Assembly (NCBI GenBank): GCA_041687095.1
Contig: JAWLCQ010000006.1
Coordinates: 2,965 to 66,964 of the forward strand
Length of the DNA: 64,000 nucleotides
Source of the DNA: Phycisphaerae bacterium
Lineage (GTDB): Bacteria; Planctomycetota; Phycisphaerae; SM23-33
Direction of reading: 5' to 3'
Below, one piece after another: positions 3,247 through 59,200 of this stretch; position 1 is the stretch's first letter, and every line of letters starts with the position of its first letter. Both the position numbers and the translations under genes were made by a program. A model generated the notes under the pieces. That model made no database searches. It saw only the letters and a program-made list of their open reading frames with translations, and was not told where the DNA came from.

Positions 3247-3321
3247 GCGGTCGGGGAATCCGAGTCCATTCCGCACCGGATGCGGGGCCAACGCCGCCGC
3301 CCGGTGGTCTCCAGCTTCCGT

Positions 3322-4275: not shown

Positions 4276-4488
4276 ATCCGCGGGTCGTTTCGGAGGGAGC
4301 CGGGCCTCCCCCCCGCCTCGCGCGGGGGCCGCCCGGACCGAGCGGCCCGCTGTTTCGGGAGCACCCGCACAATCGGGTGCGTGCAGCGGACACCTGCCAT
4401 GGGCCCGGGGCCGAGGTTGCCCCCCGTCCCGCGGCCACGCAGGAACTACTCGGGCGGCTGCCACGGCGGCCGCCCGCGTTGTTTCCAT

Positions 4489-9509: not shown

Positions 9510-9593
9510 CCCACGCAAAGGCCCAGAGACGCAAAGGGAAGAAGACACGCGGAGAAATGGGACTGCGCAGATGGGGAAGGACGGGAGGCTGTA

Positions 9594-9665
9594 CGGCATG
9601 GTCGCTTCAGCGATCCATGCTCCTGTGGTCCCCCGCACATGGATCGCTGAAGCGACCATGCCGGC
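9594..9665. repeat. Perfect 25-bp inverted repeat (GGCATGGTCGCTTCAGCGATCCATG ... CATGGATCGCTGAAGCGACCATGCC) with a ~20-nt loop, 85 bp downstream of the mutS2 stop
   Basis: Both arms are read directly and match perfectly. No T-tract follows. It could be a Rho-independent-like structure, a REP-like element or a protein-binding palindrome. Confidence 0.6.
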
Positions 9666-9967
9666 GCGCGGACTTGAGATCTGTGTGATCCCTTTCCCGC
9701 TGTGCTGCTTCTTCCCTTTGCGCCTCAGCACCTCTGCGTGAGCCCCGCCCCCGGCGCAAAGCGAAACCGGTGCGGACGTTTCCATCCGCACCGGCCCTGC
9801 TCCTCGGTTCGATCCATGGCAAAGGGGCAATGCGTACACGTTCTTTATCGGCGGAATGCTCGCGCGCCTTTGCGTAGCGGCGGAGGAAATCTACTCCGTT
9901 CGCGGCGGACTTCGACAGGCTCAGGACCAGCCCTTCGACAAGCTCAGGACCAGGCCGCCGCCGCGAA

Positions 9968-10288
9968 GGGGGCGCTCCAACGACGCTGCCGCGGAGGCCC
10001 CCCTCGCCCCTCCGGGACGCCGGGGGTCAGGAGACCCCCGGCGCAGGAGGTGGTGCGCGTGCGACGCCTCAAGCGCGTGCCGCCGCAAGCGCGTGCCGCC
10101 TCCAGCGCGTGCGTTGGGGGTCTCCTGACCCCCAACGTCCTGGAAGGACTACGAGCGCTTCCGCGATAGCGTTATGGCGGCGCTTCGATCGCGGCGATCC
10201 CCGCCGCGATGGGGGCGCTCCAACGACGCTGCCGCGGAGGCCCCCCTCGCCCCTCCAGGACGCCGGGGGTCAGGAGGCCCCCGGCGCA
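9968..10288. repeat. Two copies of a 79-bp direct repeat (9968-10046 and 10210-10288) within a hairpin-rich noncoding region spanning 9766-10440
   Basis: The copies differ at 2 positions. The associated tracts AGCGCGTGCCGCC x3 (10067-10112) and their reverse complement (10366-10425) sit in inverted orientation. Hairpins lie at 9766-9792 (10-bp stem), 10030-10047 and 10120-10145. A GCTCAGGACCAG tandem lies at 9917-9960. ORFs here are artefacts. Confidence 0.6.
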
Positions 10289-10471
10289 GACGCGCGGGAC
10301 GGGCCAGAGGACCCGCGACGCAGGCGCGTGCGAGATGTGCAGAATAATGAGGCCAGGAGACTCCCAACGCACGCGCTGGAGGCGGCACGCGCTTGGGGCG
10401 GTATGCGTTTGGGGCGGCACGCGCGCGTGAGGCGGCGAGGGTCGGCGGCGGGGACGTTGCGCTGGACGCCC

Positions 10472-18500: not shown

Positions 18501-20219
18501 ATGGCACAAAAGATTCGAAAACGACTGGGTGAGATCCTGGTGGAGTGGGGCGTCGTGTCCCCGGGCGCGGTGGAGGAGGCCCTGGCGCACGCCCAGGCCG
18601 AGCGGCTGCGGATCGGGGAGGCCCTCATCGCCCTCGAACTCGCGGACGAAGAGGACGTCACGAAGGCCCTGGCGAGCCAGTTCAACATGGAGTACATCGA
18701 CCTCGACCGCAACGTGGTCATCGCCCAGGAGTCGGAGCAGATCCCCATGGATCTGATCCGCCGGCACCTGGTCGTCCCCATGGGGCGGGAGGACGGCAAG
18801 CTCAAGGTGATCATCACCGACCCGCTGGACCTGGAAACCCTGGACATGCTGCGGTTCCGCCTGAACTGCGACCTGGCCCCGGTGCTGGCGTCGCGGACGA
18901 AGCTGCGGAACTACGTCGAGCAGTTCGCCCGCAGCGACGTCAGCATCGACCAGGCGGTCCGGGACGTGTCGACCGACGTCAGCATCGACACGGTCGGGGA
19001 CGAGGACGGCGGGCCGGAGGAAAAGCTCGATGAAAATGCCGCCCCGATTGTCCGTCTGGTTAACATGATCATCACCGAGGCGGTGAACATGCGGGCGTCG
19101 GACATCCACATCGAGCCCATGGCCAACCGCGTCCGCGTCCGCTACCGCGTGGACGGGGTCTGCATGGAGCGCGACAACATCCGCAAGCGCATGCAGGGCC
19201 CGGTCCTCAACCGCTTCAAGATCCTTTCGGGCATGGACCTGGCGGAAAAGCGGATGCCCCTCGACGGCCGCATCAAGATGCGCATCGGCAATGGCGACGT
19301 CGACTTCCGCGTCTCGTCGATCCCCGCCTACCACGGGGAGAGCATCGTCCTGCGTATTCTGCGTCCCGAGAGCGCCAAGCTCGGCGTTCGGGCGCTGGGG
19401 CTGGAGCAGGAAGACTACGACGCCTTCCAGCAGATGATCAAGCGGCCCAACGGCGTGTTCCTGGTTACCGGTCCCACGGGGTCGGGCAAGACGACCACGC
19501 TGTACGCGGCCATCAACGAACTCAACCGGCCCGACCGCAAGATCATCACCGCGGAGGACCCGGTGGAGTACAACTTCACCGGCGTGAACCAGGTTCAGGT
19601 GAACGAGACCATCGAACTCTCCTTCGCCAGGATACTTCGAGCCATGTTGCGCCAGGCGCCTAACGTGATCCTGGTGGGCGAGATTCGCGACAAAGAGGTG
19701 GCTGAAGTGGCCATCCAGGCCGCTCTGACTGGACACTTGGTTTTCAGTACACTCCACACGAACGATGCCCCCTCCGCAATCACCCGTCTGGTCGACATGG
19801 GCGTCAAGCCCTTCCTCGTCGCCAGCAGTATCCAGGCGGTCCTGGCCCAGCGGCTCATCCGCGTAATCTGCAAGGAGTGTCGCCAGGAGGATCCGAACGT
19901 CGATCCGCGCGTCCTGCGGGCCCTGGGGTTCACCGAGGCGGACATCAAGGCCTCAACCTTTTATCGTGGCGCGGGTTGCAGCACGTGCGGCGGGTCGGGA
20001 TACCGTGGGCGGCAGGGCATTTTCGAGATGATGGAGATGGACTCCACCCTCCGCGAGCTGGCCTTCAACCACGCGCCGCTGACGGAGATCCGCAAGGCGG
20101 CCCGGGCCGGGGGCATGCGAAGCCTCCTGGAGGACGGCCGGGCGAAGATCCGCAACGGCGTCACCACGCCGGAAGAGCTGATCCGCGTGACGCAGACCTC
20201 GGACCTGACGGCGGAATAA
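18501..20219 (+). CDS. pilB: Type IV pilus assembly / T2SS ATPase PilB/GspE family (copy 1) with N-terminal MshEN-type domain
   Basis: It has Walker A 'GPTGSGKTT', Asp/His boxes and a tetra-Cys motif (CKEC...CSTCGGSG). The N-terminus has tandem 'RLGEILVEWGVVSPGAVEEAL..Q' and 'RIGEALIALELADEEDVTKALASQ' MshEN-like motifs. Confidence 0.9.
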   Translation: MAQKIRKRLGEILVEWGVVSPGAVEEALAHAQAERLRIGEALIALELADEEDVTKALASQFNMEYIDLDRNVVIAQESEQIPMDLIRRHLVVPMGREDGKLKVIITDPLDLETLDMLRFRLNCDLAPVLASRTKLRNYVEQFARSDVSIDQAVRDVSTDVSIDTVGDEDGGPEEKLDENAAPIVRLVNMIITEAVNMRASDIHIEPMANRVRVRYRVDGVCMERDNIRKRMQGPVLNRFKILSGMDLAEKRMPLDGRIKMRIGNGDVDFRVSSIPAYHGESIVLRILRPESAKLGVRALGLEQEDYDAFQQMIKRPNGVFLVTGPTGSGKTTTLYAAINELNRPDRKIITAEDPVEYNFTGVNQVQVNETIELSFARILRAMLRQAPNVILVGEIRDKEVAEVAIQAALTGHLVFSTLHTNDAPSAITRLVDMGVKPFLVASSIQAVLAQRLIRVICKECRQEDPNVDPRVLRALGFTEADIKASTFYRGAGCSTCGGSGYRGRQGIFEMMEMDSTLRELAFNHAPLTEIRKAARAGGMRSLLEDGRAKIRNGVTTPEELIRVTQTSDLTAE

Positions 20220-20321
20220 CCCCAGAGCCCTTAACAGTCCCAACCGTTTGAAAACAAAATAGTTGTGTGCCTGCCGGACCCCGGGAGCCCTCGCTTTCGG
20301 TGGCCGGGCAGGAGGATCCGG

Positions 20322-20330
20322 TGTGATAAT
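20322..20330 (+). promoter_or_regulatory. Candidate extended -10 element (TGTGATAAT) upstream of pilT in the AT-richer pilB-pilT gap
   Basis: TGnGATAAT lies ~23 bp upstream of the ATG at 20353, and GGGAGAGG is a ribosome-binding site (RBS). No clear -35 is seen. It is speculative in a non-model phylum. Confidence 0.2.
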
Positions 20331-20352
20331 GCACCTGGGAGAGGAAAACTAG

Positions 20353-21483
20353 ATGGCTGCGATTCACATTGACAGATTGCTTGAGACGTGCATCAAGCGG
20401 GGTGCCAGCGACCTGCACCTCCACGTGGGCCGGCGGCCCACGTTGCGGTTGCACGGGCGGCTGCGGCCGTTGGAGACCAAGGTCCTGGAGCCGGAAGACA
20501 CTCTCGCCCTGATGAAGGCCATCACTCCCGAGCGAGCCCAACAGGAAATCCAGGAGCAGGGCGGTACGGATTTTGGGTTCGAGTTCGGCAAGGCCGGCCG
20601 CTTCCGTACCTCCGTGTACAACCAGCGGGGCAACATCTCGCTGGTGATGCGTCTGATCCCCTCCCGCCTCCTGTCCTTCGATGAGATCGGCCTGCCGGAA
20701 ATCGCGCGGGTCGTCTGCCGCCGCCCCCGCGGCATGTTCCTCGTGACGGGCCCGACGGGCTCGGGCAAGACGACGACGCTGGCGACGATGATCGACTACG
20801 TCAACACGGAGTTCGACCGCCACATCATCACCGTCGAAGACCCGATCGAGTACTACCACGATCACAAGAAGTCGATCGTCTCGCAGCGCGAGGTCGGGGT
20901 CGACATCCCCAGCTTCGCCGAGGCCCTCCGCCGCTCGCTCCGTATGGACCCCGACGTGATCCTCGTCGGGGAGCTTCGCGACCTGGAGACGATTGAATCC
21001 GCCCTTCGCGCCGCGGAGACCGGCCACCTGGTGTTCGGGACGCTGCACACCACCAGCGCCCAGGGCACCGTCACGCGTATCGTGGACCAGTTCCCGGTCG
21101 ATCAGCAGGAGCAGATCCGCGTGCAGCTCGCCTCCTCCCTGATCGCCGTGCTCTCCCAGACCCTTCTGCCGCGCGTGGACATCCGAGGCATGACCGCGGC
21201 CTTCGAGTTCCTGTACGTCACCCCTGCCGTCGCGAACCTCGTCCGCGAGAACAAGGTCTTCCGCATCCCGTCGGCCATCCAGACGGGGCGGAAGTTCGGC
21301 ATGCAGTTGCTGGACGAGCACCTGTTCCGCCTGTTCGCCGAGGGCAAGATCTCCGAGGAGGATGCCATCGACCGCAGCCAGCAAGCCGGGGAAATGCAGG
21401 AGAAGATCGAGGCGTTCCGGGCCGGGAAGTACGTTCCCCCCACGGAGCAGGATCAGGGTTCCGACGACCAGGCGGCAGGCTGA
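20353..21483 (+). CDS. pilT: Twitching-motility retraction ATPase PilT/PilU family
   Basis: The N-terminus 'RGASDLHLHVGRRPTLRLHGRL' is PilT-like. It has Walker A 'GPTGSGKTT' and 'ILVGELRD'. RBS GGGAGAGG. Confidence 0.9.
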   Translation: MAAIHIDRLLETCIKRGASDLHLHVGRRPTLRLHGRLRPLETKVLEPEDTLALMKAITPERAQQEIQEQGGTDFGFEFGKAGRFRTSVYNQRGNISLVMRLIPSRLLSFDEIGLPEIARVVCRRPRGMFLVTGPTGSGKTTTLATMIDYVNTEFDRHIITVEDPIEYYHDHKKSIVSQREVGVDIPSFAEALRRSLRMDPDVILVGELRDLETIESALRAAETGHLVFGTLHTTSAQGTVTRIVDQFPVDQQEQIRVQLASSLIAVLSQTLLPRVDIRGMTAAFEFLYVTPAVANLVRENKVFRIPSAIQTGRKFGMQLLDEHLFRLFAEGKISEEDAIDRSQQAGEMQEKIEAFRAGKYVPPTEQDQGSDDQAAG

Positions 21484-21497
21484 GGAGGTAGCGACCC

Positions 21498-23270
21498 ATG
21501 GGAATGACACCGGATATCGCGGAATTCAAAAAGCGGGTGACGATCGACGAACTCCGCGGGCGGCCGCTGGGGCGCGTGCTGCTCAAGCTCGGGTGCGTGA
21601 CGCGGGAGCAGGTCAACGAGGCCCTGGAGATCAAGAAGGACAAGGGCGGCACGATCGGGCAGATCATGGTGGACCTCGGGCACATCTCGGACAAGACCCG
21701 CGCGTTGGCGATGGGATTCCAGTCCGGGATGGAGTACGTGGACCTGAGTTCCATCGACGTGCCCCCCGAGGTCGTGCACCAGATCCCCGCCCAGATGGCC
21801 ACGACGTACCGCATCATCCCGCTGGACTTCGATCAGGAGACCAAGCGGCTGACGGTGGCGTTGGACTCGGCGGAGAACTTCCAGGCGACGGACGACCTGC
21901 AGACGCTGATGGGCTTCCGCGTCACGGCGAAGATCTGCGAGCCCGAGCAGCTCGACTCGGCCGTCCAGAAGTACTACGGGACGGGCGACGAGAAGCTCAG
22001 CGACCTGTTCAACGAGATCGCCGGGGACGATGACTTCGATGCCCTGGAGAACCGCGGGGAGAGCATCGACCTGGACACCATCAAGGAGATGGCGGACTCC
22101 AACCCCGTCCGCCGCCTGGTGAACATGGTGCTCTGGGAGGCCATCCGCAACCGCTCGTCCGACATCCACTTCGAGCCCTTCGAAGACGAGTTCAAGATGC
22201 GCTACCGCATCGACGGGGTGCTGTACGAGATGCTCCCGCCCCCCAAGTCGATCGCCGTCGCCATCGCCTCCCGCATCAAGGTCATGGCCAACCTCGACAT
22301 CGCCGAGCGCCGCCTGCCCCAGGACGGCCGCATCGAGCTGGTCGTCCGCGGGGCCCCGGTGGACCTCCGCGTCTCGGTGCTCCCGACCATGTTCGGGGAG
22401 AGCGTGGTCATGCGTGTGCTCGACCGGTCGAACGTCTCGCTGGACCTCGACCGCATCGGGTTGCGCGAGGACGACCAGCGGATCTTCCGGCAGTTGATCA
22501 AGCGGCCCAACGGGATCGTCATCGTGACGGGCCCGACGGGTTCGGGCAAGACGACGACGCTGTACTCCGCCCTCAACGACCTCAACGACGTCGAGGTGAA
22601 GATCCTCACCAGCGAGGACCCCGTCGAGTACGACATCGACGGGCTCGTCCAGGTGCAGATCAACGACGAAATCGGCCTGACGTTCGCGCGGTGCCTGCGG
22701 CACTTCCTGCGGCAGGACCCGGACGTCATCCTCATCGGGGAGATCCGCGACCTCACGACGGCCGAGATCGCCGTCCAGTCCTCGCTGACGGGCCACCTGG
22801 TGTTCTCCACCCTGCACACCAACGACGCCCCCTCCTCCATCGCGCGTCTGCTGGATCTCGGCCTCGAGCCGTACCTCGTGACGGCGACGCTGGAGGGGAT
22901 CGTCGCCCAGCGCCTGGTGCGAACCATCTGCAGCCGCTGCAAGGAGGAGTTCACGCCCACCGAGGAGATGCTGTACGAACTGGGCCTCACGCCCGACCAG
23001 ATCTCCGGGCGGACCTTCTTCCGCGGGGCCGGGTGCGAGTACTGCCGCAACACGGGCTACAGCGGCCGAATGGCCATCTTCGAGATCATGGTGATCGACG
23101 ACGAGCTGCGAGAGTTGATCATGAAGCGGAGCAGCACGAACCTGCTGCGGCAGGCGGCGAGGAAGCGCGGCATGCGAACGCTGCGAGAGAGCGGGTTGAT
23201 GGCGATCTACGACGGGCAGACCACGATCGAAGAGGTCGTGGGGCAGACCATCGAAGAAGAGATGGAATAA
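21498..23270 (+). CDS. PilB/GspE-family assembly ATPase (copy 2) with N-terminal GSPII/MshEN-like domain
   Basis: It has Walker A 'GPTGSGKTT' and a tetra-Cys motif (CSRC...CEYCRNTG). The N-terminus has 'RPLGRVLLKLGCVTREQVNEALE'. It lies 14 bp after pilT. Confidence 0.9.
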   Translation: MGMTPDIAEFKKRVTIDELRGRPLGRVLLKLGCVTREQVNEALEIKKDKGGTIGQIMVDLGHISDKTRALAMGFQSGMEYVDLSSIDVPPEVVHQIPAQMATTYRIIPLDFDQETKRLTVALDSAENFQATDDLQTLMGFRVTAKICEPEQLDSAVQKYYGTGDEKLSDLFNEIAGDDDFDALENRGESIDLDTIKEMADSNPVRRLVNMVLWEAIRNRSSDIHFEPFEDEFKMRYRIDGVLYEMLPPPKSIAVAIASRIKVMANLDIAERRLPQDGRIELVVRGAPVDLRVSVLPTMFGESVVMRVLDRSNVSLDLDRIGLREDDQRIFRQLIKRPNGIVIVTGPTGSGKTTTLYSALNDLNDVEVKILTSEDPVEYDIDGLVQVQINDEIGLTFARCLRHFLRQDPDVILIGEIRDLTTAEIAVQSSLTGHLVFSTLHTNDAPSSIARLLDLGLEPYLVTATLEGIVAQRLVRTICSRCKEEFTPTEEMLYELGLTPDQISGRTFFRGAGCEYCRNTGYSGRMAIFEIMVIDDELRELIMKRSSTNLLRQAARKRGMRTLRESGLMAIYDGQTTIEEVVGQTIEEEME

Positions 23271-29894: not shown

Positions 29895-32888
29895 ATGCAC
29901 ACGACTACACGCACGCGACGAGGCTCGGCCCTGATCATGGTGGTGGGCTTGCTGTCCATCATCGCGATGATCGGAACGGCGTTCTACCTCACCAGTCACA
30001 TGGAGAACGAGCAGTCCGCGGTGATCGCGTCACGGGTCCCCATCGGCCCCATTGCCGAGGGCGTCCTCTCGCAGGTCCTGCTCAAGCTGTCGGACGATCT
30101 GCACATCGATCCCGTGGACACCACCATCGAGGTGGGCCCGTACACCGACCTGTCCGATCCGAACGTGGATCTCGTCAAGACCTGGCTGGAGTTCGTCGAC
30201 GCCCCCGGGATGACGACGGACCCGCACCTGGCGTGCACCACGCCCCTTCCGGAAGCCTTCCCCACGTGGCGCCACCTCACAGACCTCGTCGGGAACGGCA
30301 TGTCGGTCGAGTACGTGAGCACCAGCGCCGACGAGCTGAGCGACACGGACGGGTACGATCCCCTCCCGACCCAGGCCGATCCCACCGCCAAGCGCGAGAA
30401 GGACGCCGTCCGCCTCCGCACCGGCTGGACCGATTCCACCGGGCTCGAGTACTTCTACGCCGTCCGCGTCACCGACCTGTCCGGCCTGCTGTGCCTCAAC
30501 ACCGCCTCGGGCCCCGACACCACCGACACCACGCTCAAGACCTCCCAGCCGGCACTGGTCGATCTGCGGAAGTTCTTCGTCAGCAAGAACGTGCAGGGCG
30601 TGTTCGACAACCTCAACGACTGGCGGTTCGGAACGCTGACGGACGACAAGAAGAAGCTCAAGCACCTGCACGAGATCCTGGGGACGCACGTGCTCCGTCC
30701 GCTGGATCCCTTCGCCGAGAATCCGGAACTGACCCCCGTGCGGCAGTGCTTCCCCTACACCCCGGGCGAGGAGGTCTGCCTCCGCTACCTGGGCGGGGGG
30801 ACCGGGACCAACGCCACCGACATCTCCCAGAACGGGCGCGTCTGGGCCGCCATGGGCAGCCGCCTCGGCACCCACCAGTACCCCACGGCCCGGCGGCTGC
30901 TGACGACCATGAACTCGCAGCGGCCCGTGATGCGGTTCCAGGAGAAGCGGAGCCTGACCCACACGCCCGACTTCTACTACCGCTACTGCCTGACGAACAA
31001 GGTGCTCAAGGGCGACCAGCCGGCGGAGCGGGAGAGGCTGTACTACGTGCTGGAGCACTTCCTCAAGGAGACAAGCCCCGCCACCAGCGAGATCGAACGC
31101 CGCAAGGCCGCCACGCATTTCGTCGCCAACCTCTGGGCGCGGTACGGGCAGCACGAGAAGTACGACAACGCGACGGAACACTCCGAGGATCCCAACTACC
31201 CGTGGGTCTTCGCCTGCCCCCATAACGACCCCGGCGATCCCAGCAGCAACTATACGGCGTACGGCATGATCCGCCGGCCGGTGATCACCGAAGCCTACGC
31301 GGTCTACAGCCCCGACACCGCCGATCCGGCGACCGGCGTGCCCGCGAATGACTGGTACTGGGGCTGCGCCATCGAGATCTGGAACCACGACAAGTATCCC
31401 ATCGACCTGAGGACCTACCGCGTCCGCCTCGGCGATGGGACGTGGAAGTCCCTGGCCAACGTGAAGCTCAAGGCCAACGAACGCTACGTGATCTACGACG
31501 TCGGGTCCGGGGAGAACGCTCCCAGAAAGACGGCCGACGCCATCTTCGCCGACTGGGACCAGGTCCCCAACAAGGAGCAGATCGCCGGGTTCGACTTCGG
31601 GGACAGCGGCAAGACGGTCCTGCTCGCCGAGGAGTGCCTGAAGGACTCCAGGACCGAATGGATCGCCGCCGACCAGATGGCGGACCTCTCGTACTCGACG
31701 GCGACCTCCACGGATCCCGCCGATCCCAACGCCCCCGCCCTCAACATCCGCGTGTGGAAACGGGACGATCACCCCGACCGGCAGCGGTTCAACGTCGCCG
31801 ACGCCGTCATCGACGATTCGCCCGACACCGAAACCAACGCGCATACGCTGGGGCGCCCCAACACCCTGTCTTCCGCGGAGCACGACAAGCTTGACGACTT
31901 CGTCCAGTTCCCCGTCGCCATCGACGACCGCAGCAACGGGTTCCGGTCGATCGGCGACCTGTTCCCCGTCTACTGGGCCGGCCCCAGCCGCGCCGGGGCC
32001 CCCACTGACCCCGATCCCGAGATCCTGCCCTTCAGCATGAACATCCGAACCGGTCCGATGCAACTGGCGAGCAACGGCAGCACGATCTATGCGGGGCGGC
32101 TGAACCTCGTTCCGCCCGAGATTCCCAACCCCACCACCCCCGGGCGCGGCCAGGGCCGCGGGGGCCTCTACCCCGACCTGCCCGTCGCCTGCCTCCTGGG
32201 CGAGTTCATCACGATGACGCCGCTGGACGACCGCGTCACGCCCCAGCGCACCTACGGGTTCATCAATATCAACACGGCCCCCGCGGAGGTGCTCGCCCAC
32301 CTGCCGTTCCCGGAGACGATCAAGCTCGCCTCCGGGTCGGAGGTCCAGATCAGCGCGGCCACGGCGGCCGAGTACATCTACGAGTATCGCGAGCTGCGCG
32401 GACGCTACCACGACGATCACAACGTCCCCGGGGACGGCCGGGCCAGTGCGGTCGTGAAGAACGCCCGCGCGCTGCCGGGCACCTCGAACGTGTGTGCGGA
32501 GAAGTGCTTCCTGACGCCCGGGGAGGTGGCCATCCCTCTCGGCCATTACGCGGCCTTCGCCCTCGGCTGGCCGGCCAGGGCGGATGACCCCAACACCGCC
32601 GACATGCTGAACACGGCCCACCCCACTGCCGATTCGCTCCTGAAAGACCCCGATTTCATCCAGGTGCGGGATCAGCTCTACGCCTCCATCGCCAACATGA
32701 TCACCACGCAGAGCAACACCTACGCGGTGACGATCAGCGTCGACGTCGGCACGCCCGCCAATCCCAAGGTCGCCAACTCCAAGGTGGTGATCCAGTACTC
32801 GCAGAAGTACCTGGCGATCATCGACCGCAGCAACTGCGATAAGGCCAGTGACCGCCCGACCGTCGTGCTGTTCTGCCGAACCGAGTAG
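29895..32888 (+). CDS. Giant GspK-like minor pseudopilin (997 aa)
   Basis: The N-terminus 'RRGSALIMVVGLLSIIAMIGTAFYL' is GspK-type, with a hydrophobic helix and no E at +5. It has a long periplasmic body. It is the last gene of the pilus operon. Confidence 0.7.
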   Translation: MHTTTRTRRGSALIMVVGLLSIIAMIGTAFYLTSHMENEQSAVIASRVPIGPIAEGVLSQVLLKLSDDLHIDPVDTTIEVGPYTDLSDPNVDLVKTWLEFVDAPGMTTDPHLACTTPLPEAFPTWRHLTDLVGNGMSVEYVSTSADELSDTDGYDPLPTQADPTAKREKDAVRLRTGWTDSTGLEYFYAVRVTDLSGLLCLNTASGPDTTDTTLKTSQPALVDLRKFFVSKNVQGVFDNLNDWRFGTLTDDKKKLKHLHEILGTHVLRPLDPFAENPELTPVRQCFPYTPGEEVCLRYLGGGTGTNATDISQNGRVWAAMGSRLGTHQYPTARRLLTTMNSQRPVMRFQEKRSLTHTPDFYYRYCLTNKVLKGDQPAERERLYYVLEHFLKETSPATSEIERRKAATHFVANLWARYGQHEKYDNATEHSEDPNYPWVFACPHNDPGDPSSNYTAYGMIRRPVITEAYAVYSPDTADPATGVPANDWYWGCAIEIWNHDKYPIDLRTYRVRLGDGTWKSLANVKLKANERYVIYDVGSGENAPRKTADAIFADWDQVPNKEQIAGFDFGDSGKTVLLAEECLKDSRTEWIAADQMADLSYSTATSTDPADPNAPALNIRVWKRDDHPDRQRFNVADAVIDDSPDTETNAHTLGRPNTLSSAEHDKLDDFVQFPVAIDDRSNGFRSIGDLFPVYWAGPSRAGAPTDPDPEILPFSMNIRTGPMQLASNGSTIYAGRLNLVPPEIPNPTTPGRGQGRGGLYPDLPVACLLGEFITMTPLDDRVTPQRTYGFININTAPAEVLAHLPFPETIKLASGSEVQISAATAAEYIYEYRELRGRYHDDHNVPGDGRASAVVKNARALPGTSNVCAEKCFLTPGEVAIPLGHYAAFALGWPARADDPNTADMLNTAHPTADSLLKDPDFIQVRDQLYASIANMITTQSNTYAVTISVDVGTPANPKVANSKVVIQYSQKYLAIIDRSNCDKASDRPTVVLFCRTE

Positions 32889-32889
32889 T

Positions 32890-33630
32890 CCACGAATTGC
32901 ACGAATTGCACGAAGGACGCGGGTGGCACGGATGACACGAAGAGGCTGAGCGGCGGACAACGCCGCGAGCCGCAAGCCCCGATCGCCGCTCGGGGATTCT
33001 GGAAGCCCAGGGGGAGCTTCCGGGATCCTCGAGCGGCGATTCTTTATTGGCCCCCACCTGCTCTGTCTCGACCCTCTGTTCCGGGGCCTCCCGGGGGCCG
33101 CCGTGCCCCCGAGCATGCGATCTTTCTTGGTAGACGACGGATCGGCCCCGGACCGACGGCCGCGGATCGGGCCGGTTCCCAAGGGTCGAGACAGAGCAGC
33201 CCCCACCCGGTTCGCCGCCGCCCTGCTGGGCACGGCGGCGGCCTCCGCTCGCGGGCGCCAGTGCGCAAATCATGGCGAGGTCCGCTTCCTCAGTTGCCCC
33301 CAGGCGGCCTCCGCTTGCGGGCGCCAGTGCGCAAATCCGAAGTGCACAAGCCCGAAGGGCTTTCAGAGCCGTAGCCCAGGGCCCAGCGCAGCGCCGCCCT
33401 GGGTACGGGCGATGGGGGTTTCCCGCCCTGAAAGGGCCCAAGAGCGCCCAGGCATTCTCTTGTGCCCCTTCAGGGCGAACACTCGTGGAACGGCGGACCC
33501 AGGGCGGCGGCCTGCGGCCTTGCCCGGGGCTACGGCTCTGGCAGCCCTTTGGGCTGCGGACTTCGTAAACCACGGCGCTCGCTTACCGTAGCCCACGGCA
33601 CTCGCTTACCGTAGCCCGGGGCATCCGCTT
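32890..33630. repeat. Composite repeat-rich noncoding spacer between the convergent operons
   Basis: It contains a tandem CACGAATTG x2 at 32890-32915, an IR at 32982-33042, and an IR GCTCTGTCTCGACCCTCTGTTCCGG (33060-33084) against CCGGTTCCCAAGGGTCGAGACAGAGC (33172-33197). A 35-bp direct repeat lies at 33236-33270 and 33304-33338. A nested palindrome spans 33365-33540 (CAGAGCCGTAGCCC / GGGCTACGGCTCTG). A 24-bp tandem x2 lies at 33571-33618. ORFs here are palindrome artefacts. Confidence 0.6.
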
Positions 33631-33733
33631 ATACGCATCCCAGGTGATTCTCGGGCAGCGTCGATTGGACGTGGTTGCTCCGCTGCGCTCCGCAAACCAC
33701 GGCACCCACCCGAGAATTGAGTGGAACGCGTAT
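33631..33733 (+). mobile_element. MITE-like family A full-length copy (TIR ATACGCATCC ... GGAACGCGTAT), flanked by TA dinucleotides
   Basis: It is about 90 % identical to 883-987. The flank reads TA|TACGC...GCGTA|TA, suggestive of a Tc1/IS630-type TA duplication. The other full copy does not show this. Confidence 0.5.
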
Positions 33734-33783
33734 AAGTGGAACCCGTCTTACCGAGCCGGAGCCTTGGGCTTGGGCAAGATGCG

Positions 33784-35466
33784 CTACTGCTCGAAGTGCA
33801 GCTTGTGGTACTGGTTGAAGGCGTAGTAGACGACGTTGATCCCGAGCATGTGGGCGGTGGCGACGGCGTGCTTGTTCGCGCCGCTCGACCCCTCCTTCCA
33901 CAGGTCGTTGATGTCCCCGGGATGGTAGAAGACGACCCATCGCCCGCCGTGCTTCATGCCCAGCGCCCGCGTCCCGTCGTGGTGCCAGAACGACGGAGCC
34001 CCGTTGGGGAACGTGTAGGGCTCGCGGTAGATGATGTCGTCGTTGGGGATGTCGATCCACGGCTTCCCGGGCAGGACCTGCTTCATGAGGTTGCGGAAGT
34101 GGTGCCCGAACGCCCCCCCACCGCAGTCCGCGAAAAGCATGCCGCCCTCCTCCAGCAAGTACCAGCGAAGGGTTTCGATCTCGGACTTGGTCATGTGGAT
34201 GGCCCCGCGGCCGGTGATGAAGACGAAGGGCGGGGCGGCGTTCTTCTTGAACCGCCGCAGCTTGGACACCGGGATGTGCTCGGTGTTTTTGGCGATGGGA
34301 ATGCCCGCGCGGTTGTGGGCCTCGATGAGGAAGTTGTAGTCGGCGCCCTGGCCCATGTCCTGATACCAGTCGCCCCCGCCGTACTCCAGGCGGATGAAGC
34401 GGAGCATGCCCCCGTCCTTCCCGAACGGCCAGCCGCCCTGCTTGCCCCCGCCCTTGCCCAGCTTGCCGGCCCCGATGGCGGTGACCTCGTACTCCACCCG
34501 CGTCATCTCCTCGATCTCCTCATCGATCTTGGACTCGTCGATGTCGGGGCGGTAGTAGATGATCGGGCTGTTCATGTTGAGGACGACCTTGTCGACCTTC
34601 TTGGGCTTGATGGGCTTGATGCGGACGGCCTGCGCGACGGCGGGCGTCCCGCTGCCCGGGGGCAGGTTGTACTCGTCGAGCAGGCAGCCCCACATGAGGA
34701 CGAAGGGCAGGATGACGGCGGCGACGTGGAGGAACGTCGCCCAGTAGTTGCTCGTGCGGTAGCGGGGGTCGTCCCCGTGCGTTTGCAGGTTCTTGAGCAG
34801 CCGGTCGGCGGCGGTCTCCTCGGGGGTCGCGTCGCCCGTGTAGTGCTCGCGGACGGCCCGCAGGGAGACGGCGAGCATGGTGAGGGCGGCGTAGAACATG
34901 GCGGGGACGGCGAACAGGAAGCCCGCCACCCACAGTTCGTCGCGGAAGGGTTTGTCGAAGATCGCCTTGTCGTACGCGTGCAGGGCGCGGGGCAGGCGGT
35001 CGAGGAGGAAGGCCGCCAGGACCCACACCGCCGCCGACGCCCCGGCGGCGAGGCGCATGACCACCAGCGACAGCCGCTGCCGCCACAGCGCCAGCAGCGC
35101 CCCGGCGGCACACAGGGCGGCGAGGACGGACCCGGCGGTCACGAGGCGGGCGAGGGCGGCGAGTTCCTCGACGTCCCGGAAGGGTTGGGGGCCGGTGCTG
35201 TCCTGCGCGTCCGGCAGACGGGCCATGACCGCCAGCACCTGCTGTCCGGCCACCCGCCACAGCAGCAGCACGGGCACGACGCCCGCCAGCATCAGCAGGG
35301 CCATCCTGGCCCGCAGGGGCGTGCGCTCCAGTACCCAGTGCATGCCGCGTGCGACGTACCCCAGGGCGCAGGCCGTCCCGTGGTGGATCTGGGTCAGGAC
35401 CAGGGCGAGCAGATCGGAGAGCTGCTGCGACCAATCCTCGCGTTGTGGGCGTTTCTGCAGGCGCAT
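33784..35466 (-). CDS. Polytopic membrane protein with C-terminal DUF4159-like (ThuA / class-I glutamine-amidotransferase-like fold) domain
   Basis: The N-terminal half has multiple TM helices. The C-terminal half has 'RLEYGGGDW', 'PFVFITGRGAIHMTKSEIETLRWYLLEEGGMLFADCGGG' and 'HPGDINDLWKEG', which match my recollection of the DUF4159 signature. It is the last gene of the Exb/TPR operon. Confidence 0.6.
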   Translation of the reverse strand: MRLQKRPQREDWSQQLSDLLALVLTQIHHGTACALGYVARGMHWVLERTPLRARMALLMLAGVVPVLLLWRVAGQQVLAVMARLPDAQDSTGPQPFRDVEELAALARLVTAGSVLAALCAAGALLALWRQRLSLVVMRLAAGASAAVWVLAAFLLDRLPRALHAYDKAIFDKPFRDELWVAGFLFAVPAMFYAALTMLAVSLRAVREHYTGDATPEETAADRLLKNLQTHGDDPRYRTSNYWATFLHVAAVILPFVLMWGCLLDEYNLPPGSGTPAVAQAVRIKPIKPKKVDKVVLNMNSPIIYYRPDIDESKIDEEIEEMTRVEYEVTAIGAGKLGKGGGKQGGWPFGKDGGMLRFIRLEYGGGDWYQDMGQGADYNFLIEAHNRAGIPIAKNTEHIPVSKLRRFKKNAAPPFVFITGRGAIHMTKSEIETLRWYLLEEGGMLFADCGGGAFGHHFRNLMKQVLPGKPWIDIPNDDIIYREPYTFPNGAPSFWHHDGTRALGMKHGGRWVVFYHPGDINDLWKEGSSGANKHAVATAHMLGINVVYYAFNQYHKLHFEQ

Positions 35467-41454: not shown

Positions 41455-44400
41455 CTACTCCATTTCGCTGAAGGCCCGCTCCGTCAGGCGGCCGCGGGCG
41501 ATCTTCGCCCACTTGTCCTCCGGGTAGTCCCAGGTGAGCTTCTTGAACGACTGGTAGGCGAACTGGTAGTTGCGGGCGTTGAAGTACGACTCGCCCAGCC
41601 AGTACATCGCCTCGGGACGGATCTCGCGGTCGTCCGGATAGGTCTCGACGAGCAGCGCGAACCGCTCCGCCGCCGTCTTGAAGTCGTTCATCTTGTAGAA
41701 GCACTGCCCGCTGAGGAACAGCGCCCGCGACGCCAGCTTGTGCTGCGGGTTGCGGTCCTGGAACTTGAAGAACACCTCGCCGGCCGTGTCGTAGCGGCCG
41801 CGCTTGTAGTAGTAGTTGCCCAGCCGCACGACCGCGTTGGCCACCAGGGGGCTCTCGGGGTAGATGTACGTGAGCTTCACGTACTCCTCGCAGGCGGCGT
41901 CGTAGTTCTCGAGGGACTCGTAGCAGATGGCCTTCTGGAGCTGCGAGCGGGAGGCGTACTCGCTGGCGCCCCAGGTGGTGATGACGTTGGCGTAGCGGGC
42001 GATGGCCTCGTCGAAGTTGGCCAGTTCCTGCGCCAGGTTCGCCAGCAGGTACTCGCCCTGCGAGGCGAGGGTGGTGTTGGGGTAGTCCGCCAGGGCCTCC
42101 TCGAGGATCCGCTTGCCCTGGGCCAGTTCCTCGGACGCCAGGTCCTCCTTGCCCAGCTTGCGGTGCTCCTTGGCGACCTCGAAGAGGGCCTCGGCCATCA
42201 GGAAGCGGGTCTTGACCGCCATCTCGGGGTCGGTGAAGAGCTTGGTGAAGACGGCGACCTCGGCGTTGGCCCCGAAGAAGATCGAGCCCGTCCCCTCGAC
42301 GGTCCGCTCGGCGTCGCTGGCGAGGCTGATCCTGTCGACGTAGGTGAACGTCACCTGGTCGCCGAACCCGACGCTCAGGACGTCGTCCTTCGGGTCGAGC
42401 CGCTCCTTCTTCTCCCCGACGTACACGGGCTCGAACGAGCCGGTGAACACGCCCGAGTGCGGGAGCGTCTCGCTCAGCGTGAGCGTCAACTGATCGCCCA
42501 CCCCACTCCTGGCCACGACGGTCAGCTCGTCCCGCGCGTCGGAGACGTCGCTGTCCGGGTCCGTCACCTGCACGAAGAACTTCTCGCCCAGGTGGATCGC
42601 GTTCTTGACGATCGTGTACGACGGGTCGAGCAGTTCCAGCCGCCCGTCCGACAGCAGCCGGATCGAGCGCGTGTGCCGCTCCTTGGTGATCGCGTCCTCG
42701 ACCGTCACGTGCACCACGTCGGACCCGCACACCACGAGGGTGGCGATCTTCTTCAGCTCGTCCTCGGTCCGCGGGACCAGCCCGTCGGTGGTGACGATCA
42801 CGTCGTCGACCTCGTCCCCGGGCGAACCCATCTGCAGGCGGATGACGCCCGCGAAGGTCCCGGCGGAGAGCATGCTCTCGGCGTCGGCGCGGAAGTGCGA
42901 CTGCACCCGCACGTCGTAGCCCTTGGCCCGCGCGAGCCCGTCGGCGGTCCCGATGGAGAGCGGGACGGCGACGATGCGGGCCTCGCGGTTTTCCTCCCGG
43001 GCGGCGTCGAGTTCGGACTGGGCGACGGCGGTCGCGGCCCAGTGGGACCCGGCGTGCAGGGCGAGCGTCGGGTAGTTCACCTCGAAGAGGATCGGGGCGA
43101 TGACGCTGCAGCGGATCGGGTCCTCCGGCGTCCCGGCGGGCTGGGGGGCGGGGGCGGCGGACTTGCCCTGCGGGGAGTACTCCGGGTGCGTCGCGATCAC
43201 GACGTCCTTGAAGACCACCGGGTCCTCGGGGAGGGCGAGCTTCTGCTTGATCCGTTCGGCCTTGCGGGCGGCCTCGTCGCTCGTGTCCTTCTCCTGGGTC
43301 ACCGACGTGCGGTAGACCAGCGGGCGCGGGGTGGCCTGCCCGGCCTCCATGACCTCGTACTCGCGCTGGATCGGGACGCCCGGGGCGGTGTTTTCCTTAT
43401 CCAGGTACGCCACCTTGATGATGTCATCCTGGCGGACCTTGATCTGGTCCCCGCCCGTCTGCTCGCCCGTCCGCAGGACGGCCATGAACGTGCCCGCGTG
43501 GTTGTGCTGCCCGTGCTGCCCCGTCTCCAGGGCCTTGAGCACCAGCCGCTCGCCGCTGCCGGTCGTCACCTCGATCTCCACCACGTCGCGTTCGTCCGTG
43601 AGGTCCAGGTCGTAGTCGACCACGCGGATCATGAGCTGGTCGCCCACGCGGAACCGCTTGGCGGGGTGGAAGATCGACTGCTTGGTCCTCTCGTCGATGT
43701 CCTCGTACGCCAGCTCGATCTCGCCGTTGTAGTACGACGCCTTGAGCGTGCTCGTCAGCTCCGGGGAGCCCACGGAGACGCGCTTCTCGTCCACGTACGT
43801 GACGGTGATGGTGTCCCCGGGGGCGATCTCCAGCGAGTCGTTGGTCCGCCCGGCGGTGAAGTCCTTCTCCACGGGGACGACGGGGCGGCCGTGGCTGTCG
43901 AGGATGGCGATCTCGCTGGCCTCGACGGCGTTGCCGGTGAAGTCCTCGAACACCCACTGCACCTTGCGGAGGCGGGTGGGCTCGGCGAGGACGGCGGTGA
44001 ACCCGTCGTCCGTCATCGTGATCTTGCCCTTGGGCTTGAGGTACTCCGCGAGGCCGGGGTTGGCCGCGACGCTGAACCACTCGGCGGGCAGCGGGGCGAA
44101 CGTGCCGTCATCCTTCATGTACCCCACCACCGCCTGCGACTTGGCGTGCTGGTCGGCGACGAGGACCTCCAGCCTGTGCGCGCCCTTGGCGAGGAACACG
44201 CGGCGGGTCCAGCCGATCGTGTCCTTGGTCATGTTCCCGCCCAGGTACATCTGGCCGTCGATCAGCAGGAACGCATGCTGCCAGTTGTGCGGGCTCAGGG
44301 GCTGGACGAACTTGAACTCGACCGCCTGGTCCTCCGGGAGCCAGAACACCCCGCTCATCTGGCTGACCATCCAGCCCTGGCGGTCCTTGTAGTCGGTGGC

Positions 44401-47400
44401 GGAGCGGTCGAACGCCGCCGCCTCCTGCCACCGCGCCTTGCCGCCCCGCAGGGCGATCTGCTTGCGCATGTCGTCCACGCTGCCGGCGTTGACGTTGTAG
44501 GCGGAGGCGACCGTCAGCCCGCCCTTCTGCTGCTCGGACCGTTCGGGGAAGGCGGCCAACTCCTCGTAGTCGCCCGCCAGCATCCCCAGCAGGGCGACCG
44601 AGCGGACCTGGCCGGGGCTCGTCATCTTGATCGACACCTGCTGCATCTCGTGCGAACTCATGGTGTCGACTTCGATGCTCTTGGGCTTCTTGCCGTCCGA
44701 CAGCGAGGACCACGACTCCTTGCGGGTCGAGTTGATCAGCACCGACGGGTCCAGCCCCTCCGCCGTGTCCGACGCCGACGCCTTCGGCAGGGGGATGCCC
44801 GTGGGCACCTGCGCCCGGAACATGGCGCTGTGGGGCTCGGTCTCGGTGAGTTCAAACGACTCGATCACGTCCCCGCTCGACGTCGCGATCCGCACGGTGA
44901 CCTTGTCCTTGCCCATGCTCACGTCGCGGTCGGGGTCGAGCACCTGCACGTACACCGGGCTGCCCGGGCGGACCGTGGTGCCCGACCGCAGCACGTCGAA
45001 GCGGCGGGAGGTTTCCTGGGCCTGGGCGGCGGCCATCTTGCGCTCCAGCGCCCGCTGCTCCTGCTCCTCGCGGGAGAGGATCTCGCCCGAACTCACCGCC
45101 AGCGAACCGTCGGCCTTCACCTCCAGGTTCTTGGGGGGGTAGTTGATCTCGTTGGCCTTCTGGTACTCGGGATCGATGCGGTAGCTGATCACGTCCTCGC
45201 CCAGGATCTCCAGGTTCATGTTCCCCGGGGCGGGCTGGCCGAGCGACGTGGTGATGCTGGCGGTGAACTCGTACTTGTCCGCGGAGCTGGGCAGGAGCTT
45301 GACGTGCTCCTCATCCTTCCCGACGGACGTGCGGACGACCACCGGGACCGCCGCGCCCCCGCGGGCGATGGCGAGGTTGGTGTCGCGGAGCTTCATGGTG
45401 AGCACGCGACCCGGGACGAGGATCGTCCGCAGGCGGGCCTGGCCGATGCGGACCTCGGTGTGCTGCAGCCCGCCCGGGAGGCGGAGGTGCAGCTCGCCCT
45501 CGAGGAAGGCGGCCTCGACGTGGTCGGGGACGCGGTCGAAGACCTTCCTCACGTACTCGTACGCCTCCTTGTACTCCTCCTGGAGGAAGGACATCTTGGC
45601 GTAGAGGTAGTAGGCTTCGGCCTGGACGCGGACGTCCTCATGGTCGACGAGGCGTTCGAGGATCTCATCGGCCGCCCCGTAGTCGGCCATCGTGACGAAC
45701 AGGTCGATCATCGAGTACAGGGCCCTCTGCCCCGCCTGCGTCTTGCTGTAGCGGGGGTTGGAGCGGAGGGACTGGTACTCGAGCTTGGCGGCCTGGAAGT
45801 TCTCCATGGCGCGGTAAATATTGCCCTTGGCGAGGAGGAGGCGGGCGGCGAGTTCGTCGGGGAGGTCCTGCTCGCGGAGCAGGACGGTCATCGCCAGGTC
45901 CAGGGCCTCCTTGAGGCGCTTCTGGGCGGCGAGCTGCTCGATGCACCAGGCGACGTAGTCGGGGTCCAGCGACTCCCAGGCCTTGGGCAGCATGCCGATC
46001 TTGGCCTCGGTGAGTTCCCACGCGCGGACCTCGTTGCCGAAGCTCAACGCCTGGGCGGCCATGTGCAGGTCGTACGTCGGGTCATCGGTGCGGACGGCGA
46101 TGAGGCCGGTGATGGCGCGGGCGGCGCGGGACTTGACGACGGCCATCTGCTTGCGGGCTTTGTCGGGCACGGCGTGCATGCGGTCGAGGGCGGTGATGAA
46201 CGCGAAGGCCATCTCGGACGCCCGGGCCTGCTCCAGCGTGCTGCACAGCGGCTCGATCCGCGAGCGGAGGTTGTAGTCCCAGTCGCCGTGGTCCGGCAGG
46301 TGGCGGGCGTAGGACGGGATGAGCGTGGCGAGGGAGGCCCAGTCGGCCTGGCGGGCGGCGTCGGCGGCGGCGACCTCCAGGGCGTAGACGCGGTGATGCG
46401 GGGCCCCGGAGTACGACGCCCCCGCGGCCAGTGCCTCGGCGAGGGTGCGGCAGAGCTGCATGCCCTGCGCGTTCATGCCCTTCCAGCCCTCGTCGCCCGT
46501 GGTGGCGTACCAGCGGGCGGTGTCGAAGAGCTGCTGGTGCAGCGTCACCCCCGCGAACCCCTCCTGCGCCACCTGCTCCAGCAGCGGGGGGAGGAGTTGG
46601 AACAGCATGTGGTTGCGCTTGCCGCTCTCGTACTGGCCCGCCGCCTCGCGGGCGGGGCCGTCGTGGTAGGCGATCACGCTGCAGGACTCGATCTGCGCCC
46701 GGGCGGGCCGCTTGGACACCAGGTTGCCCAGGTAGGCCTCGTAGAACTTCTGGGCCGCCTCCCCGTGCCCGGAGCGGCGGAGCATGCCGTACACCAGCCC
46801 CTCCGACCAGACGCTGTAGTCCTTCGTGCGGTCGGCGTCGGCGAGGTAGAAGGCCCAGATCGCCTCGGCCGACTTGGGGGAGAGCTTGCGGTCGGACGCG
46901 GCGAGGTTGTAGAGGTTGCTCAGCCAACTGTACGCGCCGGCCGAGGACGAGAAGGCGAACCCCTTCGTCCCCATCAGCACGCCGATCTCGTCGGCCCACT
47001 TCTGCTGGTTGTCGCGGTCGTTGCTCGCCTGGTTGTAGAGGTAGGCCAACGCCCGCTCCCAGCCCATCCTGTCGTAGACGGGGGCGAAGACGCTCTGGGG
47101 GTCCTCCTTGGGATTGCGAGCACTGGCCAGTTCCTGCCAGACCCGCTCATCCCCGGCCGACTTGGCCGCCTGGACCTGCTGGACGTAGTGCTTGGCGAGG
47201 GTGTAGAGCAGCCCGCTGTTGCCCAGTTCGCGGACGCGGCGAGCGGTGCCCTCCCAGTCCGCCCCCAGGCCCATCCGGGGCGCCCAGGTTTCGGCCATCG
47301 CGTAGAACCCGTCGCGGTCGTTCCACATGACCCCGCGGTGACGGGAGTAGATGCGGTACAGCACCCACTCAGGGGCGTCCTTGGGCCCGTCGCCCGCGAA

Positions 47401-57892: not shown

Positions 57893-57913
57893 CCAAAACT
57901 CCTCGCTTTGCGG

Positions 57914-58040
57914 AAGGTGAGAGGTGAGAGGTTAGAGGTTAGAGGTTAGAGTCCGGCGGTCCGAGCGTGGGCGGTGATGCGAAGGTCCCGTCCGCGCCCG
58001 AGCGTCTGCCCTCTCACCTCTCACCTCTAACCTCTAACCT
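57914..58040. repeat. Inverted heptad-repeat arrays (GKTRAGA)x5 ... (CTCTNAC)x5 flanking a ~55-bp spacer
   Basis: GGTGAGAGGTGAGAGGTTAGAGGTTAGAGGTTAGAG (57916-57951) lies against CTCTCACCTCTCACCTCTAACCTCTAACCTCTACC (58006-58040). This allows a ~35-bp register-tolerant stem between the coaB stop and the URO-D-like start. Confidence 0.6.
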
Positions 58041-58667: not shown

Positions 58668-58737
58668 CCCCAGAGCCTACCCATCCCCCCCCGCCGATGC
58701 AACCGCCCCGCCCGCGACAGCGCCATCGCAACCCCTC

Positions 58738-58795
58738 AGTCGCGGGTGCCACGGCTGCGCTGTTCACAGCCGTGCTCGCACGAGCGCCCGGGGGA
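58738..58795. repeat. Family B repeat copy (degenerate, no right TIR)
   Basis: 50 of 52 bp are identical to 13642-13694. Confidence 0.5.
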
Positions 58796-58859
58796 ATCCG
58801 GTTTCTGCAAGCCCCGTTGTTCTACACGTCTCGGACCTCGCGGGGCGGCTGGGACACAT

Positions 58860-59200
58860 CTCCCGGCATCCCTGCCGGGACGCGCCTCCGGGCGTCCCGA
58901 GAGGGATGCATCTCCGGGCTTCCCGGCAGGGACGCTGTGACAATAGCCCAGCAGTTCACTGCTGGGACCCGGGCACCCCCCCCTTCCTTTTCTTCTTCTC
59001 AAGCCCCGGGAGGGGCGATTGAGGGCGCGCCGTGGCCCCATCCCTCAATCGCCCCTGCCGGGGCTCAAACTCCCGCGCGACCGTTACCCAGCAGTGAACT
59101 GCTGGGCTATTCTCAATCCGTCCCTGCCGGGACTCCGGAATCGCGTCCCTCCCGGGACTCCAGAGTCGCATCCCTGCCGGGACGCCCGGAAGCTCCCTGT
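58860..59200. repeat. ~340-bp nested palindrome / repeat array built from 'RTCCCTGCCGGGAC' units
   Basis: Centre arms are TCAAGCCCCGGGAGGGGCGATTGAGGG (58995-59021) against CCCTCAATCGCCCCTGCCGGGGCTCAAAC (59041-59069). The next layer is GTGACAATAGCCCAGCAGTTCACTGCTGGG (58938-58967) against CCCAGCAGTGAACTGCTGGGCTATTCTCAAT (59087-59115). The outer layer is CCCGGCAGGGACGC against CGTCCCTGCCGGG. A 25-bp tandem x3 lies at 59113-59190. A related CCCCTGCATCCCCTGCATCCCTGCC lies at 797-830. Confidence 0.6.

Follow-up and report, generated by a model that had tools for sequence, protein, structure and literature searches.

The 895-nt spacer at positions 32889–33783 of a 64,000-nt stretch of Phycisphaerae bacterium DNA (contig JAWLCQ010000006.1; the whole stretch is referred to below as the window) is probably a cluster of the REP/BIME-like type (REP, repetitive extragenic palindrome; BIME, bacterial interspersed mosaic element), i.e. 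a 3′-to-3′ intergenic "safe harbour" in which small palindromic repeats have accumulated. The right end of the spacer (33560–33740) belongs, on the evidence of its sequence, to a REP family whose units are dispersed in the window and, in other Planctomycetota, flank genes for REP-associated tyrosine transposases (RAYTs). Features of this kind are well known from REP/RAYT systems and are little described in Planctomycetota.

A REP family at the right end of the spacer

The right end of the spacer is made up of the following features:

33560–33631, − strand: REP half-unit array with a period of 23 nt and 2.7–3 units (Tandem Repeats Finder (TRF) score 89, TRF span 33570–33631)
33624–33740 (117 nt): composite element, designated family A, consisting of a palindromic shell around a REP core, with 32-nt arms that are 78% complementary
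33667–33707, − strand: REP core, GGGTGCC-GTGGTTTGC-GGAGCGCAGCGGA-GCAACCAC-GTC

Judged by its sequence, the family A unit is a REP element, a hairpin of approximately 40 nt (39–41 nt) with the head GGGTGCC followed by GTGG. In the core at 33667–33707 the head is unpaired and precedes a stem of 7–9 bp, interrupted by a single bulge and closed by a loop of 13 nt (−13 to −16 kcal/mol). The surrounding shell (arms at 33624–33655 and 33709–33740) folds with z-scores (z) of −4.8 and −5.3, and on the − strand the family A hairpin reaches −62.5 kcal/mol and is the first structure met past the stop codon of the adjacent DUF4159 gene, 44 nt away.

Further members of the family were found elsewhere in the window:

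667–705, − strand: REP core without a shell, 20 nt past the stop codon with which a + strand gene ends at 647
753–773: half-unit, following the core at 667–705
883–988: second full copy of family A, with shell and core (920–961), abutting the stop codon that ends gene 985–3291 (− strand)
4520–4562, + strand: REP core without a shell, in the opposite orientation, within the convergent spacer 4276–4601 and 40 nt from a − strand gene's stop codon

In total, the window contains four full REP cores and at least three half-units, all of them intergenic, and each of the four cores is placed in a convergent spacer. A 28-nt invariant stretch is common to the four copies, and the 106-nt part that the two full copies have in common (33631–33736 versus 883–988) is 92% identical, as revealed by both BLAST and alignment.

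A 24-mer from the invariant stretch was scanned against one genome per species. Exact matches were detected at 13 loci in five Planctomycetota metagenome-assembled genomes (MAGs), the GC content of the loci ranging from 55 to 68%; eight of the exact matches fell within one fragmented MAG, and the source genome was not among the hits. The first-pass annotation had placed a copy of a dispersed repeat family in the spacer, and with four core copies in the window and others in five further MAGs the family is clearly not unique to it. About 39 nt (window positions 33669–33707) are conserved across the loci, the flanks of which are unrelated.

A profile search of the window and the 24-mer loci yielded 25 core copies. 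Going by rough ORF calls, about 16 of these have a stop codon no more than 60 nt away and point either with or against the gene, and a single copy falls in a divergent (promoter) spacer. Some REP copies begin just 1–5 nt past the stop codon (1447–1489 in locus L009, 5209–5249 in L012 and 757–797 in L001). REPs of Escherichia coli that are this close to a stop codon are reported to reduce the expression of the upstream gene.

RAYT genes and REPtrons in other Planctomycetota

Locus L009 carries an ORF (1575–2141) that matches the NCBIfam equivalog model NF047646, REP-associated tyrosine transposase (86.2 bits versus a cutoff of 80; E = 2e-24). The predicted protein contains the motifs EHVH, FWQ and YIHDNP, and its gene has inverted REP cores on both sides. 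The ORFs of 204–216 aa located beside core copies were also considered as a single family; this was rejected, and only the ORF of L009 is a RAYT. Seven further RAYTs were identified in loci L014, L015 and L024–L028 (identities of 96, 66, 64, 64, 62, 55 and 53%). In all eight loci examined, which derive from Planctomycetota genomes and metagenomes, the RAYT gene is flanked by inverted hairpins. By its sequence organization this layout, a RAYT gene between inverted units, is the classical REPtron arrangement described for TnpA_REP/RAYT systems (PMC6006769, PMC3733652).

The flanking units have an invariant unpaired head, GGGTGCC, followed by (G/A)TGG, and their loops vary. In the window copies and in most of the units the head is followed by GTGG, and in L028 by ATGG. 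The stems co-vary between the loci in such a way that pairing is kept (GTGGTTTGC/GCAACCAC, GTGGCTGC/GCAGCCAC and ATGGCC/GGCCAT).

A metagenome scan and a protein search placed 1,691 proteins of about 189 aa in this RAYT family (E ≤ 1e-20), and the corresponding records are named as transposases or RAYTs of Planctomycetota, Phycisphaerae or Thermoguttaceae. The motifs EHVH, FWQ and YIHDNP fit class 2 (TnpA_REP-like) and not class 3 (PMC6006769, PMC3733652), the latter being reported principally in Planctomycetes, Acidobacteria and Proteobacteria (PMC6006769, PMC3733652). REPs and TnpA_REP-like genes have been reported in Planctomycetes, and the same placement, dimer formation and REPtron layout are on record (PMC3733652, PMC6006769); the REP consensus has GT[AG]G as a conserved 5′ tetranucleotide at the base of the hairpin (PMC6006769, PMC3733652). 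A family combining the GGGTGCC-GTGG head, a 13-nt loop and 23-nt half-unit arrays was not found in these two REP surveys (PMC6006769, PMC3733652).

On the − strand of L008 (approximately 200–380), only the first ~28 codons of a RAYT gene (94–100% identical to L009) are left, joined to what appears to be the 3′ end of the gene and to a REP core. The remnant resembles a REPtron that has undergone an internal deletion, and it is in the same MAG as the intact copy in L009. Locus L027 carries a fragment of an IS110-family transposase (8296–8784; Pfam Transposase_20) about 1.2 kb from its RAYT gene. Elements of the IS110/IS1111 type target REP-like palindromes, and the proximity of this fragment to the RAYT gene may not be coincidental.

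The 23-nt half-unit array

The array at 33560–33631 directly adjoins the full REP and has the same orientation. Its − strand units are GCGCCGTGGTTTACG, GTGCCGTGGGCTACG and a third, degenerate one. When the window was searched with a REP head profile built from other genomes only, two array units ranked 5th and 6th (E = 0.15 and 1.6), directly below three full cores and the half-unit at 753–773.

Head-only half-units in strict 23-nt tandem arrays were also detected just downstream of the RAYT genes of L015 (4602–4830) and L025 (10613–10800), whose products are approximately 62–64% identical to the L009 protein. The recurrence of such arrays beside diverged RAYTs suggests that they are a systematic product of the transposase. 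From these sequence comparisons we assign 33560–33631 as a REP half-unit array with moderate confidence. Its make-up is also compatible with a protein-binding array, as the first-pass annotation had proposed for the spacer, in which case the bound sequences would be RAYT recognition heads.

Palindromes and repeats in the remainder of the spacer

The left and middle parts of the spacer contain five further elements:

32891–32914: 9-nt tandem repeat CACGAATTG, 2.7 copies, 3 nt past the stop codon of the + strand gene (TRF score 48)
32982–33040, with its tract to 33049, + strand: first hairpin, with 25-nt arms that are 88% complementary and a 9-nt loop, followed by TTCTTTATT
33058–33199: second hairpin, a palindrome of 142 nt whose outer stem pairs perfectly over 18 bp; the arms (46 nt) pair at 72%, and the interior is branched
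33237–33271 and 33303–33337: pair of 35-nt direct repeats, 34/35 identical, 66 nt from start to start
33349–33555 (207 nt): nested palindrome, folding as a single hairpin (−153.5 kcal/mol)

All six repeat architectures listed in the first-pass annotation are present, with the start-to-start spacing of the 35-nt repeats corrected from 68 to 66 nt and the period of the tandem array from 24 to 23 nt; the palindrome quoted there as 33365–33540 is real and extends to 33349–33555.

The first hairpin is GC-rich and stable (−55.4 kcal/mol, z = −5.4). It starts 94 nt downstream of the last stop codon of the type IV pilus/type II secretion system (T2SS)-like operon on its left, and on the + strand it is directly followed by UUCUUUAUU, a U-tract. 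From these sequence features, 32982–33049 is probably the intrinsic terminator of this + strand operon. It resembles intrinsic terminators in that a GC-rich hairpin is followed by a U-rich run after the last gene of an operon, and differs from them in its unusually long stem (~28 bp) and its distance of 94 nt from the stop codon. It went unlisted in a simple terminator scan, the presumable reason being its 9-nt loop, as that scan is limited to loops of 3–8 nt. No U-tract follows the other structures of the spacer, nor any structure on the − strand, so the earlier suggestion of bidirectional terminators can be retained for the + strand only.

The 142-nt palindrome has a folding energy of −87.7 kcal/mol (z = −5.9). 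In contrast, the region of the 35-nt direct repeats is unstructured (z = −0.55). An alignment of the 35-nt repeat with the REP core was marginal (p ~0.03, uncorrected), and no similarity is claimed.

The nested palindrome folds strongly relative to controls, whether as RNA (z = −10.5) or as DNA (z = −10.1). Two inverted hairpin units, at 33369–33408 (+) and 33494–33537 (−), enclose a central hairpin (33424–33477), and both units start with CCGTAGCCC. This arrangement suggests a likeness in shape to REPINs (REP doublets forming hairpins), whereas membership in the REP family is unsupported by profile or alignment. The "GTAG" units were tried as relatives of the REP core, on account of a similar head and a common loop motif (AGCGCAGCG), and were rejected (score 18 versus 17.6 for the shuffle null). 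The REP head profile did not detect the nested palindrome, and its sole connection with the core is an indirect one, via a 14-nt motif (CCGTAGCCCNGGGC) that it has in common with the tandem units and that is absent from the fetched loci. The 142-nt palindrome, the nested palindrome, the hairpin at 32982–33040 and the 35-nt repeat are each single-copy in the window plus ~242 kb of loci; none of the 28 fetched loci contains the 142-nt palindrome.

Genetic setting of the spacer

The spacer is bounded exactly by two converging stop codons, which belong to the following genes:

29895–32888, + strand: gene for a protein of 997 aa, the left neighbour, with a stop codon ending at 32888
33784–35466, − strand: DUF4159 gene, the right neighbour, with its stop codon facing the spacer

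The former gene closes a + strand type IV pilus/T2SS-like cluster (T2SSE ATPases, T2SSF, N-methyl pseudopilins) and the latter a − strand TPR-TPR-ExbB-ExbD-ExbD cluster. The G+C content of third codon positions (GC3) is flat across the spacer (0.65–0.74 in each frame and each candidate ORF) and reaches 0.92–0.95 in the flanking genes; because of this difference, no ORF of the spacer is credible. The flat GC3, the converging stop codons and the domain matches bear out the first-pass description of a noncoding spacer between convergent pilus and Exb/TPR operons.

Rfam gave no match at the gathering threshold in the whole window. At permissive thresholds the top match in the spacer was Actino-pnp, with 27.2 bits versus a threshold of 47.7, i.e. 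a generic hairpin match. No tRNA or tmRNA genes were found, and a simple promoter/terminator scan yielded no promoters; its two weak terminator-like sites are roughly as many as chance would give.

In the closest relatives available (protein identity 48–51%) the same ExbBD/TPR/DUF4159 operon is kept. The spacer that follows it there is 98 or 246 nt long, faces a different gene and has no sequence similarity to 32889–33783. These short, dissimilar spacers are consistent with lineage-specific accretion of the repeats, which they support weakly, because a protein identity of only 48–51% makes non-conservation weak evidence.

It is worth mentioning two further observations on the neighbouring clusters. 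The pilus/T2SS-like cluster apparently includes three consecutive ATPase paralogues at 18501–23270 (18501–20219, 20353–21483 and 21498–23270), the first two of which match Pfam T2SSE, with the third inferred from a 300-nt repeat 70% identical to the first. The strand block of the TPR/ExbBD genes also contains, on the − strand, an ORF of 2,611 aa (41455–49290) with a GC3 of 0.97, a strong sign of coding.

Folding strength of the spacer and of other intergenic regions

The whole spacer folds at −525 kcal/mol, versus −418 ± 7 (+ strand) and −439 ± 9 kcal/mol (− strand) for dinucleotide shuffles, which corresponds to z = −15 and −9.7, respectively, and confirms the dense structure noted earlier. 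The z-scores of its single hairpins range from −3.5 to −6.2. Three parts are not unusually stable, with z close to 0: the region of the 35-nt repeats, the tandem array and the REP core taken by itself.

Such structure is not confined to the studied spacer. The window has 15 intergenic regions of 140–1000 nt, and eight of them, the studied spacer included, have z ≤ −4.8. Two are at least as extreme, 9510–10471 (z = −18) and 58668–59488 (z = −16), and coding controls gave values around 0, with one at −5. Comparably strong palindromes are also present in divergent and co-directional spacers of the window. Since about half of the tested spacers reach z ≤ −4.8 and small repeat families link spacers to one another, the genome appears to be rich in intergenic palindromic repeats. 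The studied spacer is one of the larger accumulations, and palindromic richness is a property of the genome rather than of this locus.

The most extreme of these regions, the convergent spacer 9510–10471, carries a direct repeat of 89 nt (9958/10201) with 97% identity between the copies, together with inverted repeats of 76–101 nt and short tandem units of the GCGCGTGCCGCC type, with no similarity to family A. The divergent spacer 58668–59488 has 46-nt arms (58921–58966 and 59087–59132) that are 91% complementary, and in a neighbouring 148-nt spacer (57893–58040, z = −10) heptamer tandem repeats, AGGTGAG/AGGTTAG, form a hairpin. Further small repeat families join the spacer segments 13623–13718/58718–58813, 6258–6329/17891–17962 and 3493–3529/50639–50675 (75–96% identity). 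The last pair is inverted, and one of its members is a hairpin with a 13-bp stem, 6 nt past a stop codon. These three families may be additional REP-like families.

Origin of the repeat cluster

By analogy with known REP/RAYT systems, the REP/BIME-like cluster would have arisen as follows. A RAYT, i.e. a single-copy HUH tyrosine transposase, would recognise the units as single-stranded DNA hairpins, and would cut and rejoin them, so that they spread to new extragenic sites without target-site duplication; we infer that the units in the source genome were mobilised in this way. Copies that lie downstream of genes or between convergent ones, where promoters are undisturbed, would then be retained. 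The sequences at 33058–33199, 33237–33337 and 33349–33555 would most simply be further palindromic insertions, or local duplications and inversions of like material.

Once transcribed as the 3′ ends of operons, the hairpins would probably hinder read-through and block 3′ exonucleases, and the U-tract hairpin at 32982–33049 probably ends transcription of the + strand operon. REP hairpins can attenuate read-through and protect 3′ ends, and a terminator or stabiliser role would seem plausible for the hairpins of the spacer.

Several findings weigh against interpreting the whole spacer as a REP/BIME-like cluster. More than half of it (33058–33555) has no other copy in all the sequence searched, and the nested palindrome is both unseen by the head profile and not significantly similar to the core. 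The two array units are individually weak matches to the same profile. The core hairpin alone is not unusually stable, which makes a purely structural role of the core a weak proposition. In addition, the 64-kb window contains no RAYT gene.

It is possible, if somewhat unlikely, that local duplication and inversion (by replication slippage and template switching) in a GC-rich spacer produced the structure as a side effect, in which case no transposase took part and the REP is incidental. The 14-nt motif argues for such events: it occurs four times in the window (0.35 expected), every time in the studied spacer and in both orientations, with two copies in the arms of the nested palindrome and two in the 23-nt tandem array, and its confinement to the spacer suggests local duplication and inversion. 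The 35-nt direct repeat, the tandem periods of 9, 15 and 23 nt, and the absence of further copies of the other palindromes from everything searched point in the same direction. However, local events of this kind leave unexplained the dispersed core found across genomes, its association with REPtrons, and the recurrence of 23-nt half-unit arrays beside unrelated RAYT genes.

There is also a rather small chance that the REP/BIME-like cluster belongs to a distinct, uncatalogued REP/RAYT branch, in which the 7-nt unpaired head GGGTGCC plus a paired GTGG would be recognised and head-only half-units in strict 23-nt arrays would be generated. Such arrays may in this case be a propagation product undescribed for classical REPs. 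On the same reading, the identity of the 39-nt unit in genomes of such different base composition (55–68% GC) could reflect its co-option as a sequence-specific 3′-end signal, rather than mere tolerance of its presence.

It is improbable that family A is a classical miniature inverted-repeat transposable element (MITE), i.e. a deletion derivative of an insertion sequence (IS) with a DDE transposase, moved via its terminal inverted repeats and carrying the REP-like core as a passenger, although the first-pass annotation had called it MITE-like. The 32-nt terminal inverted repeats (33624–33655/33709–33740), the strong folding of the shell (z ~−5) and the 92% identity of the two 106-nt copies would all suit a MITE. 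However, inspection revealed no target-site duplication at either full copy (the left flanks end in ...CGCTT and ...AGGTC, and the right flanks begin with AAGTG and CAGAC), which is consistent with HUH-type insertion. The 106-nt shell is limited to its two copies in the source window, with none in the ~242 kb of loci from other genomes, and no IS with the shell ends (TTATACGCATCCCAGG) was seen in the window. Moreover, the most conserved and widespread part is the core, which also occurs free of a shell (667–705 and 4520–4562) and, as a REP hairpin, flanks the RAYT genes in all eight loci; the MITE designation is therefore not upheld.

We consider it quite unlikely that selection maintains the palindromes for a function in RNA or DNA, as bidirectional terminators, insulators or small RNAs that separate the convergent operons: their very stable structures on both strands, the U-tract after the hairpin at 32982–33040 and a position exactly between the converging pilus-like and ExbBD/TPR operons would favour such a role, but no Rfam family was matched at gathering or permissive thresholds, no U-tract follows the − strand structures, equally strong palindromes occupy divergent and co-directional spacers of the window, REP units point either way with respect to genes, and the operon of the relatives (only 48–51% identical) ends with a dissimilar spacer of 98 or 246 nt. 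The small RNAs proposed in the first pass are likewise without support: Rfam gave no matches, the repeat is found in two orientations, and the locus is not conserved in the nearest relatives, which are distant.

Relation to known repeat systems and significance

The REP/BIME-like cluster has its closest counterparts in the REP/RAYT systems of E. coli, Pseudomonas and Stenotrophomonas. As in these systems, the repeat unit of family A is short and imperfectly palindromic, its conserved unpaired head includes GT[AG]G where the stem begins, its copies are dispersed, extragenic, mostly located just downstream of genes and found in either orientation, and the Planctomycetota transposase, with its HuH, WQ and YIHxNP motifs, is encoded between inverted units, with no target-site duplication seen. 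The Planctomycetota unit differs in that its head is the heptamer GGGTGCC plus GTGG, with GTGG itself base-paired, in its long 13-nt loop and weak hairpin, in the formation of head-only half-units in 23-nt tandem arrays, in the host phylum, and in the presence of an identical 39-nt unit in genomes of quite different GC content.

The likeness to BIMEs and REPINs lies in the clustering of several hairpin units between convergent genes and in the 207-nt element, two inverted hairpin units of which can fold into one long hairpin. In contrast to BIMEs and REPINs, the inverted units of this element are separated by ~85 nt that include a third hairpin, and they could be linked neither with the RAYT-associated family nor with another copy. 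Moreover, the cluster is for the most part built from palindromes that are unrelated to each other, not from one REP in many copies. Family A also has the size (~110 nt), long terminal inverted repeats, intergenic location, more than one copy and long-hairpin fold of MITEs such as Correia elements, ERIC and RUP, from which it differs in lacking a visible target-site duplication or a matching IS, and in that what is conserved and widespread is the REP hairpin inside it instead of its ends.

A known mechanism accounts for an odd-looking spacer, which guards against its mis-annotation as a small RNA locus, a CRISPR-like array or a MITE. The analysis also provides a REP consensus (the GGGTGCC-GTGG hairpin) and a cognate RAYT family for Planctomycetota, a phylum in which such systems have hardly been characterised. 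Both are of use for genome annotation, for assembly (where repeats break contigs) and for studies of REPIN–RAYT population dynamics outside Proteobacteria, and the recurrent 23-nt half-unit arrays offer a small clue to the processing of RAYT substrates.

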